From Acidiferrobacteraceae bacterium (GTDB lineage Bacteria > Pseudomonadota > Gammaproteobacteria > Acidiferrobacterales > JAJDNE01): 56,704 bases of DNA. Positions 51,113 to 56,704 of this stretch are shown here, piece by piece. Every line of letters starts with the position of its first letter. Position 1 is the first letter of the stretch. The stretch covers positions 1 through 56,704 of the forward strand of contig JARRJV010000010.1 of assembly GCA_037388825.1 (NCBI GenBank), given 5' to 3'. Under the pieces are notes generated by a model. It was given only the letters and a program-made list of their open reading frames with translations, did no database searches and had not been told where the DNA came from. A program made the position numbers and the translations under genes.

Positions 51113-52293
51113 GCGTCCGCCTCCACGGCCGCGCCACTGCTCGCCGCAACCACCTTGGCCGCGGCATCGGCAAGCGTGGCGGCGGTGATGATGTCCAAAC
51201 CGCTGCTCTCCAGCAATTCGCGTCCACGATCGGCGTTCGTGCCTTCCAGGCGCACCACCACCGGCAAGGCCAGGCCTACCTCACGCACCGCGGCGATGAT
51301 CCCGTCGGCAATGAGGTCGCAGCGCACGATACCGCCAAAGATATTGACCAGGATGGCGCGTACCTTTTCGTCGGAAAGAATAATCTTCAGCGCTTCCGCG
51401 ACCTTGTCCGAGGTGGTGCCGCCGCCGACATCGAGAAAGTTCGCCGGACGGCCGCCGTGCAACTGGATCAGATCCATGGTCGCCATGGCCAGGCCAGCAC
51501 CGTTCACCATGCAACCGATCTCGCCGTCCAGCGCGACATAGTTCAGACCGAACTGATGCGCCTTGTGTTCTTTCGGGTCTTCCTGCGTCGGGTCGCGCCA
51601 CTCCTCAATCTGCTTCTGGCGGAAGAGCGCGTTGTCATCGACATTGATTTTGGCATCCAGCGCCAGCAGTTCACCTGCGGTCGTGCGGGCGAGCGGGTTG
51701 ATTTCCACCAGGCTCAGGTCCCGTTCGAGGAACAGGCGGTACATGGCCAACATGATCCGCGTCAGGGCGCCGACTTGCTTGTCGCGCAGACCCAGGGCAA
51801 AGGCTAGCTCGCGGCACTGATAGGCCTGCAGACCCGTGACGGGATTAACCACGGCACGCAGGATCTTCTCCGGTGCAGTGGCCGCCACCTGCTCGATGTC
51901 CATTCCGCCCTCGGCCGAGGCGACGAACACCACCCGTGCGCGGCTGCGATCCACCAGACAGGCGACATAGTATTCATGATCAACCGCGACCGGGGCCTCC
52001 ACCAGGATGCGCTCCACCGGTTGCCCCTCGGAACCGGTCTGGGCCGTCACCAGCCTCGTCCCCAGAAGCTGGTCCGCCGCCTTCTCCAGCTCAGCCCGTC
52101 CCTGAACCGGACGCACGCCGCCCGCCTTGCCGCGACCGCCGGCGTGCACCTGCGCCTTCACGATCCAGTCGTTGCCACCCAGCTCCTCGGCCACGGCCAG
52201 GGCCTCGCGCACGGAAAAGGCCGCCTTCCCCGCCGGCACCGGAATCCCGGCAGTAGCCAGCAGGGACTTGGACTGGTACTCATGTAAATTCAT
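51109..52293 (-). CDS. sucC: Succinyl-CoA synthetase beta subunit
   Basis: [51 protein letters not shown]. Confidence 0.98.
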
Positions 52294-52474
52294 CGAAAAG
52301 AAACCTTTGTGCTTGTTTTCGCGAAACGGACGCTATTTTCGTGCAAAACACGTCCGTCGTCGACCGCCCCATCCCGGGCGCAATTCCGCGAACAGTTTGC
52401 GGGAACGTGCTGACGGGAATCCGTTATCATAAACCCGTCTGGTCGCGTATTACCCATCGACGAGAAGGTTCACC

Positions 52475-53614
52475 ATGCAGCTGACTGTCACCTCCAGCCT
52501 GGATTCCGTCGATTCCGCACAGTGGAATGCCTGCACCGGGGGCAATTCTTTCCTGCGCCATGAATTCCTGTCCGCCCTGGAACACAGCGGATGTGTCGGA
52601 GCCGGCAGTGGCTGGGAGCCACGCCACCTGGTGCTGCTGTCCGACGACAACGGCGACCGCAGACTGCTGGGCGCGGTGCCCATGTATCTAAAGACACATT
52701 CCTACGGCGAATACGTATTTGACTGGGCCTGGGCCGACGCCTATGAGCGCTCGGGACTTCACTACTACCCGAAACTGGTCGTGGCCGTGCCTTTCACACC
52801 AGCGACGGGGCCCAGGATTCTGGTTGCCCCGGACCAGGACCATGCGCGGATCGGATCGGCCCTGGTGGACGGCGCATTGACCGTCGCGCAGGAAACCGGC
52901 GCTTCCTCATTGCACTGGCTGTTCACGAACGAAAGGGATACGGGCCTGTTGGAAGGCAAGGGCCTGTTGCGGCGCACCGGCATGCAGTTTCACTGGCACA
53001 ATCGTGACTACCGGGACTTCGACGATTTCCTTTCCGGTTTCTCCGCCGCCAAACGCAAGAAGGTGAAACGCGAACGGCGCTATGTACGCGAGGCCGGCAT
53101 CGTGCTGGAACGGATCTCCGGGAACGAGGCCACCGATGCGCATTGGGAGCGATTCCATCGTTTCTACCTGAACACAATACGCTCCCGTGGCGCCATGCCC
53201 TATCTCAATCTGGAGTTCTTTCGCGAACTTGGCCGCACCATGCCGGATCAGGTGCTGTTGATTCTTGCCCGCTACGAGGATCGGCATGTGGCGGGTGCCT
53301 TGTTCCTGCGTGGAAGCGATACCCTGTACGGGCGCTACTGGGGTTCCAGTGAGGAGTTTCACAGTCTGCACTTTGAGACCTGCTATTATGACCCCATAGC
53401 CTACTGCATCGAACAAGGCATCCAACGCTTCGAAGCGGGCGCACAGGGCGAACACAAACTCAGCCGCGGCTTCCTGCCCACGCCAACGTGGTCCGTGCAC
53501 TGGCTGGCGCATCCCGAGTTCGAGCGGGCCGTTTCCGATTATCTCGCCCGGGAACGCATCGGCATGGAACATTATATGGATGATCTCAACGAACACTCGC
53601 CCTATCGTGGCTAG
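52475..53614 (+). CDS. DUF482 / FemAB-like tandem GNAT protein
   Basis: FLRHEFLSALE, YLKTHSYGEYVFDWAWA, YYPKL..AVPFTP, LYGRYWG, LHFETCYY, FEAGAQGEHKLSRGF. Confidence 0.92.
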   Translation: MQLTVTSSLDSVDSAQWNACTGGNSFLRHEFLSALEHSGCVGAGSGWEPRHLVLLSDDNGDRRLLGAVPMYLKTHSYGEYVFDWAWADAYERSGLHYYPKLVVAVPFTPATGPRILVAPDQDHARIGSALVDGALTVAQETGASSLHWLFTNERDTGLLEGKGLLRRTGMQFHWHNRDYRDFDDFLSGFSAAKRKKVKRERRYVREAGIVLERISGNEATDAHWERFHRFYLNTIRSRGAMPYLNLEFFRELGRTMPDQVLLILARYEDRHVAGALFLRGSDTLYGRYWGSSEEFHSLHFETCYYDPIAYCIEQGIQRFEAGAQGEHKLSRGFLPTPTWSVHWLAHPEFERAVSDYLARERIGMEHYMDDLNEHSPYRG

Positions 53615-53631
53615 CTACGCGGAGTCCTGGC

Positions 53632-54354
53632 GTGTTTCTTTTATCGCTTGATAACGACGAGCTCCGCTTCCCGCCGGTTGACCTGGCTTCTCCGGAGGGT
53701 TTGCTGGCCGTCGGCGGGGACCTGCGCAGCGAGCGCCTGTTGACTGCGTATCGCCACGGCATCTTTCCCTGGTACAGCGACGACCAGCCCATTCTCTGGT
53801 GGTCCCCCGATCCGCGGGCCGTGTTCTTCCCGGACCGGATTCACATCTCCCGCAGCCTGCGCAAGACCCTGCGCCGCGGGCGTTTTACCATCACCATGGA
53901 TACATCTTTCAAAGACGTGATTTCGGCCTGTGCCGAAACCGGGCTGCGTCGCGGTGCAAAGGGCACGTGGATTACAACGGAAATGCAGCAGGCCTATATC
54001 GATCTGCACCGCAAGGGATATGCACACTCGGTTGAAGTCTGGGAAAACGGTGAACTGGCAGGCGGCCTGTACGGCCTGTCACTGGGCCGGGCCTTTTTCG
54101 GCGAATCCATGTTTCATCGGCGCACCGATGCCTCCAAGGTCGCGCTCGTGGCACTGTCACGGCAGGCGCAGGCGTGGGGATTTCTGTTCATCGATGCCCA
54201 GGTCAGCTCGGACCACATTCTTCGCCTGGGCGCGGTGGAGATTCGACGAACCCGGTTCATGGAGTTGTTGGCCCGGGCCCTGGAGTCGCCGACGCGGATC
54301 GGCCCCTGGACCCTGGATGAGAGACTCATGGACCGCACCAGGGGCAAGCAATGA
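53632..54354 (+). CDS. aat: Leucyl/phenylalanyl-tRNA--protein transferase
   Basis: GLLAVGGDL, AYRHGIFPW, WWSPDPRAV, GTWIT, AHSVEVW, GESMF, ASKVAL. Confidence 0.97.
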   Translation: MFLLSLDNDELRFPPVDLASPEGLLAVGGDLRSERLLTAYRHGIFPWYSDDQPILWWSPDPRAVFFPDRIHISRSLRKTLRRGRFTITMDTSFKDVISACAETGLRRGAKGTWITTEMQQAYIDLHRKGYAHSVEVWENGELAGGLYGLSLGRAFFGESMFHRRTDASKVALVALSRQAQAWGFLFIDAQVSSDHILRLGAVEIRRTRFMELLARALESPTRIGPWTLDERLMDRTRGKQ

Positions 54355-55085
54355 CGGTCTCGCAGAAGATCCCGGATCTCTATCTGTCCATGCCCCACGA
54401 GTGTGGATACCTGGACGATCGTATCGCCACCACGCTCTTCGTCGATCCCCACGTCCCCCTTTCCCGCCGGCAGTACACGGAGTTGGTGAAGACGGGCTTT
54501 CGCCGCAGCGGCGGCCTCGTGTACCGGCCTCACTGCCAGGGATGCAACGCCTGTGTCCCGGTACGCATCCCGGTCCATCGCTTTGCCCCGTCACGGGCAC
54601 AGCGCCGAAACCGGAAACGCAATTCCGACCTGATTGTCCAGACGGTGGAAGGCGGATATCGGGAGTCTCACTTTGACCTGTACTGCCGTTACCAGAGTTC
54701 CCGGCACCGTGGCGGCAGCATGGACGTCGGCGATCCACTGCAATATCGGGACTTTCTTTTCAGCAGTGATTTTGAGACCCAGGTGTTTGAATTTCGTCCC
54801 CGCGAAGACCCCGACCGACTGATCGCCGTGGCCATCGCCGATCGGCTCGACGACGGGCTCTCGGCGGTATACACGTTTTTCGACCCGGACGAACAGCACC
54901 GGGGTCCCGGGGTGTACGGGATCCTGTGGGAAATTGACGAGGTGCGCCGCCTTGGCCTGCCCTATCTCTATCTCGGCTACTGGATTGGGGAATCACCCAA
55001 GATGAGCTACAAGACCAACTACCATCCCTTGCAGGCCCTTTTGCATGGCGAATGGCGGGATTTTTCGTTTGACGCAAATCCGTAA
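54351..55085 (+). CDS. bpt: Arginyl-tRNA-transferase-like / Asp,Glu-specific leucyltransferase (Bpt, ATE family)
   Basis: HECGYL, GFRRSG..YRPHCQGCNACVPVRI, LSAVYTFFDP, YLYLGYWI, KMSYK. Confidence 0.93.
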   Translation: MTVSQKIPDLYLSMPHECGYLDDRIATTLFVDPHVPLSRRQYTELVKTGFRRSGGLVYRPHCQGCNACVPVRIPVHRFAPSRAQRRNRKRNSDLIVQTVEGGYRESHFDLYCRYQSSRHRGGSMDVGDPLQYRDFLFSSDFETQVFEFRPREDPDRLIAVAIADRLDDGLSAVYTFFDPDEQHRGPGVYGILWEIDEVRRLGLPYLYLGYWIGESPKMSYKTNYHPLQALLHGEWRDFSFDANP

Positions 55086-55147
55086 CAAACCGTGATCTAT
55101 ACTTTGGGTACGCCCAAAACCCGGTCCCCGGGAAAAGGAGTCGCGCA

Positions 55148-55378
55148 ATGCTCAGCCATCTGTACCGGCTCATCCGCGCTTTCGAAACCAGACACGGCTA
55201 TCGCCCCAACATCCTCACCATCCACCCCCGCCACTATTCCGAACTACGCGACAGCCTTCCAGCCTATACCCGCTACCTGGAACTGACCCGCTTTCTGGGC
55301 ATGCGCGTGGTTCTCAGCTCCGACAGCATCCACCCGCATGTGTCGTGGAGCGCGGTCGCGGAACGCGACAGCGCCTGA
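55148..55378 (+). CDS. Small hypothetical protein (76 aa), possible stand-alone HK97 A-domain
   Basis: Strong RBS AAGGAG (55135-55140) and an upstream TATACT -10 candidate (55098-55103); protein-like sequence. Fold call is inference only. Confidence 0.75.
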
Positions 55379-55433
55379 GCCCCGCCACACCGGGTTTCAC
55401 CACCATCGCCCCGGATTTCCCGGGAATCGGCGC

Positions 55434-55462
55434 TTTACCTCTCCTGACGCATCCGGCATCAT
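55434..55462 (+). promoter_or_regulatory. Candidate sigma-70 promoter of infA
   Basis: TTTACC-N17-CATCAT upstream of infA. Confidence 0.35.
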
Positions 55463-55526
55463 ACGCGCGCAATCGGCCGCGGAAGCGTATTTTGGCCGGA
55501 ATTTAGAGAAATCCAAGAGGAGAAGC

Positions 55527-55745
55527 GTGGCAAAAGAAGACCATATCGAGATGGAAGGGGTCGTAGTCGAGACCCTGCCCAACACCCTGTTTCGCGTCGA
55601 ACTGGAGAACGGCCATGTAGTCACGGCCCACATCTCCGGAAAGATGCGCAAGCACTACATCCGTATTCTCACCGGTGACAAGGTCACCGTGCAGCTCACC
55701 CCCTACGACCTGAGCAAGGGCCGCATCGTCTTCCGCACCCGCTAG
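55527..55745 (+). CDS. infA: Translation initiation factor IF-1
   Basis: GTG start after GAGGAG; [48 protein letters not shown]. Confidence 0.99.
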
Positions 55746-55787
55746 ACCCGCGCCGGTCCTCCCGGTGGCCCCCTAGTCTTCACTGGC

Positions 55788-55814
55788 AAAAAAAGACCCC
55801 GGCGAACCGGGGTC
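55788..55814 (-). terminator. Intrinsic terminator of the porin gene
   Basis: 8-bp stem GACCCCGG/CCGGGGTC with a UUCG loop on the minus strand, followed by T7. Confidence 0.9.
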
Positions 55815-55857
55815 GAGATAGCGTCGTGCAACGCGAACGTTGCAGCGAATCTTGCGG

Positions 55858-56704
55858 CTAGAAGATCGTGGTGATCTGGATGCCGTAGCGGTTCCCGATC
55901 TGAGCCAATCCAGCTACCAGGGGTCCCAGCGGTGCGGAACCGGTGGTCTCGGCCGACCGGATTTCATAGTTCAGGATAATCCGCGACTTCTTGTTCAGGT
56001 GGTACTGCGCACCGATTGTCGTGCGCTTGAATTGCGCCGCGATGGCTGCACTCTCCGTGGACCGGTTGTACACGTCATAGCGCAGATCGGCTTCCCAGTT
56101 GGAGCCCGGGATGTAGTAGCCGACATCGGCATAGTAACCATTGGCTTTGCCGTCCAGGCCCGAACCACCACCGATAGCGAAGTTCGGTTTCTCGGGCCCC
56201 TGGAAGATCATGCCCTTGCCGGCCATATACTCCGCGGTCACACGCCAGTCGCCCCGGCGATAGCGGGTACCGATACCGTAACGGTTGCGATCGTGGACCG
56301 TGGGATTCGCCACGCCATCATCGGTGTTGTCGAGCTGACGCTTGCCGGTCTGACTCCAGACGAAGGTTTTCCATCCCTGCTGGAACGGCCCATGGCCGCC
56401 AAATACCCACTCCGAAGACCAGTAGGCATAGATATCGTGCTGCCCCTCTACAGTTTCCGAGGTGTACGGCTCGAGGCCGGCGCCATTACCGATCATCAGC
56501 GCATAGCTATGCTCCCAATCGCCGGTCTTGAACCAGTCAAATACCTCCAGACCGGTATCACGCGCGGCACCAAAGGACGAATCCCAGGATGCTTCCCCGG
56601 GAAGCGCCAACGGTGGCGGTGCCGGAGAGAGGATGGCACCGGTTTGGTTTATGCCGTTTGAGAACCGCTCCAACATCAGCTGGTTGCCCACCCACGTGAA
56701 GTTG
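55858..56704 (-). CDS. Outer-membrane beta-barrel porin (OprO/OprP-like), 5' part outside window
   Basis: Alternating aromatic beta-strands (DWRVTAEY, GYYADVGY, WEADLRYDVY, TIGAQYHL) and a terminal Phe; frame open to the window edge. Confidence 0.75.
   Translation of the reverse strand, partial: NFTWVGNQLMLERFSNGINQTGAILSPAPPPLALPGEASWDSSFGAARDTGLEVFDWFKTGDWEHSYALMIGNGAGLEPYTSETVEGQHDIYAYWSSEWVFGGHGPFQQGWKTFVWSQTGKRQLDNTDDGVANPTVHDRNRYGIGTRYRRGDWRVTAEYMAGKGMIFQGPEKPNFAIGGGSGLDGKANGYYADVGYYIPGSNWEADLRYDVYNRSTESAAIAAQFKRTTIGAQYHLNKKSRIILNYEIRSAETTGSAPLGPLVAGLAQIGNRYGIQITTIF

Follow-up and report, generated by a model that had tools for sequence, protein, structure and literature searches.

Gene X1 between bpt and infA

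The window analysed here (the whole stretch of 56,704 nucleotides (nt) from contig JARRJV010000010.1 of an Acidiferrobacteraceae bacterium) contains, between bpt and infA, a small gene that we designate X1, encoding a protein of 76 amino acids (aa). X1 is a genuine gene, vertically inherited and under purifying selection, and it belongs to a protein family, termed X below, that is unclassified in Pfam and NCBIfam and undescribed in the literature within reach of our search. HK97-fold shell proteins may provide the closest structural analogue of this family, in the core of their axial (A) domain. A preliminary description of this DNA had reported a 76-aa open reading frame (ORF) with its own ribosome binding site at this place, and the coordinates, the AAGGAG sequence and the Pfam assignments of the neighbouring genes confirm it (Table 1). 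The same description let the feature begin at position 55098 because the hexamer TATACT, its candidate -10 element, starts there; the hexamer is present, but a simple σ70 scan of positions 52200-56000 found no promoter-like site.

X1 is the fourth gene of a tight, co-oriented block, in which aat and bpt overlap by 4 nt and the gap between the DUF482 gene and aat is 17 nt; bpt ends 62 nt upstream of X1 and infA starts 148 nt downstream, all on the same strand. Neither a promoter nor a terminator was detected in the intervals between bpt, X1 and infA, and we therefore infer that X1 is co-transcribed with aat and bpt; a hairpin 3′ of infA is the sole terminator-like site after the block. A search of Rfam returned nothing relevant, and none of the RNA-seq runs searched for the locus contain it. 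The product (approximately 9 kDa, isoelectric point 9.8, six histidines) is predicted to be cytosolic, with no signal peptide or membrane segment evident by inspection and no recognisable catalytic motif. Both the GC content of X1 (0.62) and its GC content at third codon positions (0.78) are like those of the neighbouring genes, indicating native composition.

Table 1. Positions of X1, its candidate signals and the surrounding features in the window
Feature	Position	Strand	Remarks
FemAB_like/DUF482 GNAT-fold gene	52475-53614	+	Pfam PF04339, E 7.7e-156; first gene of the co-oriented block
aat (Leu/Phe-tRNA-protein transferase)	53632-54354	+	Pfam Leu_Phe_trans, E 1.4e-77
bpt (arginyl/leucyl-tRNA-protein transferase)	54351-55085	+	Pfam ATE_N, E 1.6e-24; ATE_C, E 7.3e-40
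TATACT hexamer (candidate -10 of the preliminary description)	55098-55103	+	No support from the σ70 scan
Shine-Dalgarno sequence AAGGAG	55135-55140	+	7 nt 5′ of the X1 ATG; read directly
X1 ORF	55148-55378	+	ATG to TGA; 76 aa; letters identical to the sequence quoted in the preliminary description
infA (IF1)	55527-55745	+	Pfam eIF-1a, E 1.3e-28
GC-rich hairpin with T-run	55795-55814	Called on minus	3′ of infA
Convergent ORF	55858-56691	-	277 aa

Extent and conservation of the X family

An exhaustive phmmer search of 1.8 billion representatives (clusters at 50% identity, E ≤ 1e-3) placed X1 in a family of 75 clusters, nearly all of them 73-80 aa long and aligning end to end. Less sensitive routes found far less: a word-indexed search with X1 yielded three close clusters only, and a single-protein search for related loci yielded one relative, in a metagenome-assembled genome (MAG) of the Acidiferrobacterales. 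In a six-frame search, all 41 of the 41 genomes of the window's order carried the family, mostly in two to three copies each, and the window's own genome contains a second copy (paralog X2) besides X1; the description of X1 as an orphan thus no longer holds. A profile search detected the family in 23 of the 201 gammaproteobacterial genera sampled, and in a phylum-wide sample members outside Gammaproteobacteria occurred in two genomes only. Those cluster members that carry a name are from Woeseiaceae, Ectothiorhodospiraceae and unclassified Gammaproteobacteria, every one of them labelled as a hypothetical protein, and the DNA was detected in metagenomes from marsh, salt marsh and sediment. Members occur mostly in Gammaproteobacteria of the sulfur cycle and of sediments (Acidiferrobacterales-like, Woeseiaceae and Ectothiorhodospiraceae), and no Pfam, NCBIfam or PADLOC family matched the X family.

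Pairwise ratios of nonsynonymous to synonymous substitutions (dN/dS) between orthologs were 0.10-0.30, with one pair at 0.44, and neither loss of the ORF nor frequent frameshifts were seen in closely related genomes. An alignment of 52 family sequences (A1) has the consensus MLSxIYRLxxxFExxHGxxPNLLYLNxxHxxxL...LGMExV...HPHVxW, with near-invariant positions L2, G17, P20, N21, H29, L33, L50, H62, P63 and V65; M1 shows no variation, and at least 90% of members have L2, in all subfamilies.

Syntenic subfamilies

The family appears to have diverged into stable subfamilies defined by neighbourhood, X1, X2 and X3, while a few copies would have moved elsewhere. The arrangement aat-bpt-X1-infA is kept, in order and strand, both within the order to which the window belongs and at loci of more than 15 other families in the class (tblastn), and in some loci it extends to clpA, giving aat-bpt-[X1]-infA(-clpA); in a few genomes (L035 and L045), X1 adjoins infA and clpA without bpt. 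The longer order DUF482-aat-bpt-X1-infA recurs in the six same-order loci that reach far enough upstream (L001-L003 and L020-L022). In 15 loci, X2 is located 3′ of a gene for a dihaem cytochrome c4 and is convergent with hemL-thiE, with engB beyond the cytochrome gene; no signal peptide of X2 was evident by inspection. X3, which is 91 aa long with a C-terminal tail, lies directly 3′ of cysC (adenylylsulfate kinase) and beside nadA (quinolinate synthase) at loci L080 and L081 (G028:C4 and G018:C77). A maximum-likelihood tree contains an X2 clade (98/97) and an X3 clade (99/96), with the bpt/infA-linked sequences forming the remainder. Further copies occupy unrelated genomic places; the only members outside the class (L094, G393:C18; L095, G491:C13) lie between a hybrid histidine kinase/response regulator gene and chemotaxis genes of the CheA/CheB type.

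The X2 locus of the window's own genome is unusual. On contig C23 (L019, 2799-3830, minus strand), the cytochrome c4 ORF has no stop and continues in frame into X2, resulting in a fused ORF of 343 aa joined via approximately 70 odd residues; in relatives, the cytochrome ends in ...YMEGLAAR* (G002) or ...YMAGLH* (G007). This read-through could represent a lost stop codon, a MAG assembly error or a chance open spacer.

Predicted fold and structural neighbours

AlphaFold2 run on the single X1 sequence, without an alignment, gave an uninformative model (predicted local distance difference test, pLDDT, 55), while the run with alignment A1 gave a model with a pLDDT of 90.6 and a predicted template modelling score (pTM) of 0.78. 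The latter model is a single compact unit with the order α-β-α-α-β-β, i.e., helices at residues 2-16, 27-36 and 43-50 and three strands at residues 22-25, 53-56 and 64-66, followed by a less confident C-terminal helix; these segments are the ones that the preliminary description had picked out by eye as helices and strands.

In a Foldseek comparison of this model with the Protein Data Bank (PDB), HK97-fold proteins made up approximately 35 of the top 50 entries by our own count, with template modelling (TM) scores of 0.45-0.55. They include the T. maritima encapsulin (3dkt; TM score on the query, TMq, 0.52) and its pore mutants, M. xanthus EncA (8v4q; TMq 0.55), the A. acidipropionici encapsulin, HK97 proheads, the capsids of phages FCWL1, P74-26 and P23-45, and the BB3626 prophage capsid; 8cfa, 9kmg and 3bjq are among the HK97-fold entries in the list. 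In BFVD, the top matches were uncharacterised phage proteins of 70-90 aa (E 3.5e-3 to 4e-2, probability 0.98-1.0, TM 0.56-0.71), followed by major capsid proteins of the HK97 family (probability up to 0.93, TMq up to 0.66).

In HK97 nomenclature, the A-domain core consists of helix α5, a strand ending in N-P, helix α6, an extra helix in encapsulins, the LWGxPVV strand and a following strand. The predicted elements of X1 would, by our own reading, map one-to-one and in order onto this contiguous core, α5-β-α6-(α7)-β-β, and the strand before α5 would be missing from X. The mapping is based on the capsid and encapsulin alignments as we read them and on the published description of A-domains, in which two main helices surround a four-stranded sheet (PMC8346489).

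Comparison with encapsulins and capsids

The A-domain of family-1 encapsulins (PF04454, Linocin_M18; 3DKT and 8V4Q) provided the top PDB matches, with a TMq of 0.52-0.55 over 62-64 aligned columns. By our own reading of the alignment, its core runs helix, strand, helix, helix, strand, strand, as does X, and family-1 encapsulins seem to match the predicted element order of X best. In the alignment of X with family-1 encapsulins (hhalign, non-significant), the local pattern LEHIRRLVDGKVVWAP is similar to the 16-residue stretch opposite it. However, X, at approximately 76 aa, has no P-domain, E-loop or N-helix and no match to PF04454, and nothing in it suggests the formation of a shell; where an HK97-fold protein combines A-domain, P-domain and E-loop, X would correspond at most to the A-domain core. 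The genome itself was found to contain no full-length gene for an HK97-fold capsid and no encapsulin gene.

With HK97-type capsids (PF05065), X shares a local register in which HGxxPNLLYLNPxH...LGMxVV in X stands opposite (E/D)YPxxGIVLNPxDW...LWGxPVV in the capsids, and its structural neighbours of this type comprise the HK97 prohead, FCWL1 and BB3626 in the PDB as well as capsids in BFVD. A non-significant hhalign run with an HK97-gp5-like alignment placed the same segment in the same way (HGxxPNLLYLNxxH on AEYPATGIVLNPxDW), at the α5-strand-α6 junction. X differs from these capsids in being cellular and single-domain, in lying outside any prophage and in showing no significant sequence similarity. 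A separate locus (L056, G158:C109) contains an HK97-type major capsid gene split over two frames, with an N-terminal part of 272 aa and a C-terminal part of 202 aa, which suggests a frameshifted prophage gene.

Stand-alone A-domain proteins, i.e., family 4 (PF08967; 2PK8, P. furiosus PF0899), have been reported only in hyperthermophilic archaea and in two thermophilic genera of Bacteroidota, and their function is unassigned (PMC8346489, PMC11664910). Family 4 and X are both stand-alone and small with a likeness to the A-domain only, and in form the gene of each lies directly 3′ of an enzyme gene (family-4 layout from PMC8346489). In X this two-gene layout is bpt followed by X1, cytochrome c4 followed by X2 and cysC followed by X3, and the enzymes differ from those of family 4. 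X is approximately 76 aa long with three predicted strands, whereas family-4 proteins have approximately 100 aa and four strands, a difference in length that the preliminary description had already pointed out. The hosts differ as well: X occurs in Gammaproteobacteria of marsh and sediment metagenomes, and family 4 in thermophilic Euryarchaeota and Bacteroidota. In bacteria, family-4 genes have been reported near genes of haem biosynthesis (PMC8346489); the position of X2 beside hemL and a cytochrome c4 gene parallels this context, a parallel to which we give no weight. The structure 2pk8 (PF0899/DUF1884) ranked 17th among the Foldseek matches of X1 and was weak (E 2.1, TMq 0.46, TM score on the target 0.39). 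Because the PF08967 profile gave no match, X1 was not filed in DUF1884/family 4, the assignment proposed in the preliminary description.

Searches for links to phages and mobile elements

Neither X1 nor the family consensus gave a meaningful tblastn match among the INPHARED phages or the PLSDB plasmids, and a scan of IMG/VR viral contigs with alignment A3 found no relatives of X. Since the genome is without a full-length HK97-fold gene and no phage, plasmid or viral-contig relatives were found, X1 is not prophage debris, and a prophage remnant was rejected as its source; the non-prophage status given in the preliminary description agrees with these searches, and X1 is chromosomal and native in composition.

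Small phage proteins (Serratia phage Rovert A0A7T3TKV9; proteins of Bacillus phages CP-51, Slash and Palmer) were the best Foldseek matches overall and are similar to X in length. The sole recurrent link at the level of sequence, a weak one, was to phrog_8726, a phage family of 72 positions that was matched by six of the 52 members at E ≤ 0.1 (best E 2.7e-4) and by the X1 protein of the window at E 0.2; the E-values are marginal, and tblastn gave no link from X to any phage. When genomes were searched in six frames with phrog_8726, X1 or X2 loci were matched in four of them (E 0.006-0.65), over profile positions 8-40 only. The same profile matches gp191 of Bacillus phage CP-51 (KF554508.2, 117968-118504; a hypothetical protein of 178 aa encoded two genes 5′ of the gene for the large terminase) with an E-value of 3.9e-4, over profile positions 2-33 only. 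The A1 profile had no match in the CP-51 genome, and the route from the BFVD neighbour through CP-51 to the X family was dropped as uninformative, phrog_8726 having matched only part of gp191.

Interpretation and alternative explanations

We lean towards the real structure of X being A-domain-like. X may act as a small non-enzymatic module for protein binding or oligomerisation, as A-domains do in shells; this guess is preferred over an enzyme because X is small, shows no evident signal peptide or membrane segment (by inspection) and no recognisable catalytic motif, and has paralogs beside unrelated genes. The combined reading, in which X1 is a conserved small cytosolic protein with a compact A-domain-like fold that serves as a binding or oligomerising module within a stable syntenic family, has in our judgement roughly an even chance of being correct. 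Common descent with HK97-fold proteins appears rather unlikely. A still more specific proposal seems slightly more doubtful, namely that X derives from capsids and is a family of mini A-domains which mesophilic Gammaproteobacteria domesticated as a second independent stand-alone lineage, duplicated beside different host genes and related to the small phage proteins (phrog_8726 and the BFVD neighbours).

A number of results weigh against an A-domain-like binding module. Foldseek returned no match at E ≤ 0.001 in either the PDB or BFVD, the best PDB match was non-significant (E 0.84, probability 0.38), a TM score of approximately 0.5 is borderline for a query of 76 residues, and the model has three strands in place of the four described for A-domains (PMC8346489). 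Searches at the sequence level were likewise negative: the PF08967 profile (now ENCP4; gathering threshold 31.4 bits), run in six frames on the window's own genome at E ≤ 1, hit an unrelated locus on C13 only and neither X1 nor X2; none of the 52 family members matched PF08967, PF05065, PF04454 or any other member of clan CL0373 in Pfam at E ≤ 0.1; and in a six-frame search of eight genomes carrying X, PF05065 matched no X locus at E ≤ 10. The hhalign comparisons were non-significant with the HK97-family capsid alignment (A2; probability 0.15%), with the C-terminal HK97-gp5-like alignment (probability 0.5%, P 0.12) and with the family-1 encapsulin alignment (probability 1.5%). Capsid hidden Markov models run on 115 X proteins reached a best E-value of 0.39, and single members gave only weak, non-significant matches to capsid_Caudo_1 (E 0.069) and to phrog_1005, annotated as major head protein (E 0.029); the matches to PDB sequences in a profile search (3fsg and 8kdk, E approximately 0.1) were all attributable to chance. 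The binding function is itself something we infer, the partner genes differ among the paralogs, and cytochrome c4 is periplasmic, while X2 has no signal peptide evident by inspection. The resemblance to an A-domain noted in the preliminary description is borne out by the predicted fold and by the register of the local motif, and homology finds no support in the sequence and profile tests; similarly, HK97-fold proteins dominate the Foldseek neighbours of the AlphaFold2 model, but no match is significant. The profile match to capsid or encapsulin families that the preliminary description had named as possible support did not appear in Pfam or NCBIfam, with PF08967 or PF05065, or in the three hhalign runs, and membership in DUF1884/family 4 finds no support in the PF08967 search.

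X may instead be an independent small α/β protein whose likeness to the A-domain is convergent and whose function is unrelated to shells and scaffolds, a reading that we regard as a real possibility, albeit short of an even chance. It agrees with the absence of a significant sequence or profile signal to capsid or encapsulin families, with PDB Foldseek E-values of approximately 1, with the absence of X homologs from the phage, viral-contig and plasmid collections searched, with the variable genomic partners and with the conserved polar residues H16, N21, H29 and H62, which are unlike those of capsid A-domains; such a protein might serve as a small regulator or bind a ligand or metal via His16, His29 and the HPHV motif of X1. 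Convergence fits less well with a neighbour list drawn from one fold class (approximately 35 of 50) rather than from scattered small α/β folds, and with an element order that corresponds to a contiguous stretch of the A-domain with the local motif in register. At the other extreme, X1 might be an actual family-4-type partner that binds and stabilises Bpt, and perhaps Aat or the DUF482 protein, with the paralogs doing likewise for their own upstream enzymes. An enzyme gene followed on the same strand by a small gene for an A-domain-like protein does recur at bpt, cytochrome c4 and cysC, which mirrors family-4 operons, and the reported haem-biosynthesis context of bacterial family-4 genes (PMC8346489) points the same way. 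Nevertheless, the PF08967 profile has no match in X, X1 adjoins infA without bpt in some genomes (L035 and L045), and some copies lie beside chemotaxis or kinase genes. The bpt gene is common among Gammaproteobacteria (e.g., in Pseudomonas), and most of the gammaproteobacterial genera sampled are without X. Cytochrome c4 is an exported, periplasmic protein, and a signal peptide is not evident in X2. Family 4 itself is known only as dimers, and no complex has been structurally characterised (PMC11664910). Taken with its opposing evidence, this partner role is improbable. The scaffold for Aat, Bpt and the DUF482 protein suggested in the preliminary description is weakened as well, though conceivable for X1, because most genera are without X although bpt is common, X1 is kept without bpt, cytochrome c4 is periplasmic and the paralogs lie beside unrelated genes.

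The invariant M1, the highly conserved L2 and the location of X1 in a neighbourhood running from aat-bpt to clpA would be compatible with X being a substrate or modulator of the N-degron/ClpS-ClpAP pathway, in which removal of Met1 from Met-Leu-Ser would expose a destabilising Leu. We consider this very improbable, since X2 and X3 have the same N-terminus and are unlinked to N-degron genes, the N-terminus is inside a confidently predicted helix, and, as is well established, Met followed by Leu is not cleaved off by methionine aminopeptidase. A chance frame, of the kind that high-GC DNA yields in large numbers, or a regulatory leader of infA has a negligible probability; we rejected both because the protein is conserved across the class, its dN/dS is far below 1, the genome has paralogs elsewhere and the fold is predicted with confidence.

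If the A-domain likeness of X is real, the family would represent a second, sequence-unrelated set of stand-alone A-domains, in mesophilic Proteobacteria and with several paralogs available for comparison in each genome, and it would bear on how frequently parts of capsids are recruited by cells; if the resemblance is convergent, X would be one more conserved small protein without an assigned function. Capsids aside, X1 is a conserved unannotated gene within aat-bpt-infA-clpA and is relevant to studies of the N-degron pathway and of infA expression in these lineages.

Downstream of the block, near the end of the window, a convergent minus-strand ORF, which extends towards the end of the window, shares the hairpin with infA (Table 1). 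Its product ends in ...QITTIF, by eye a typical C-terminus of an outer-membrane β-barrel.
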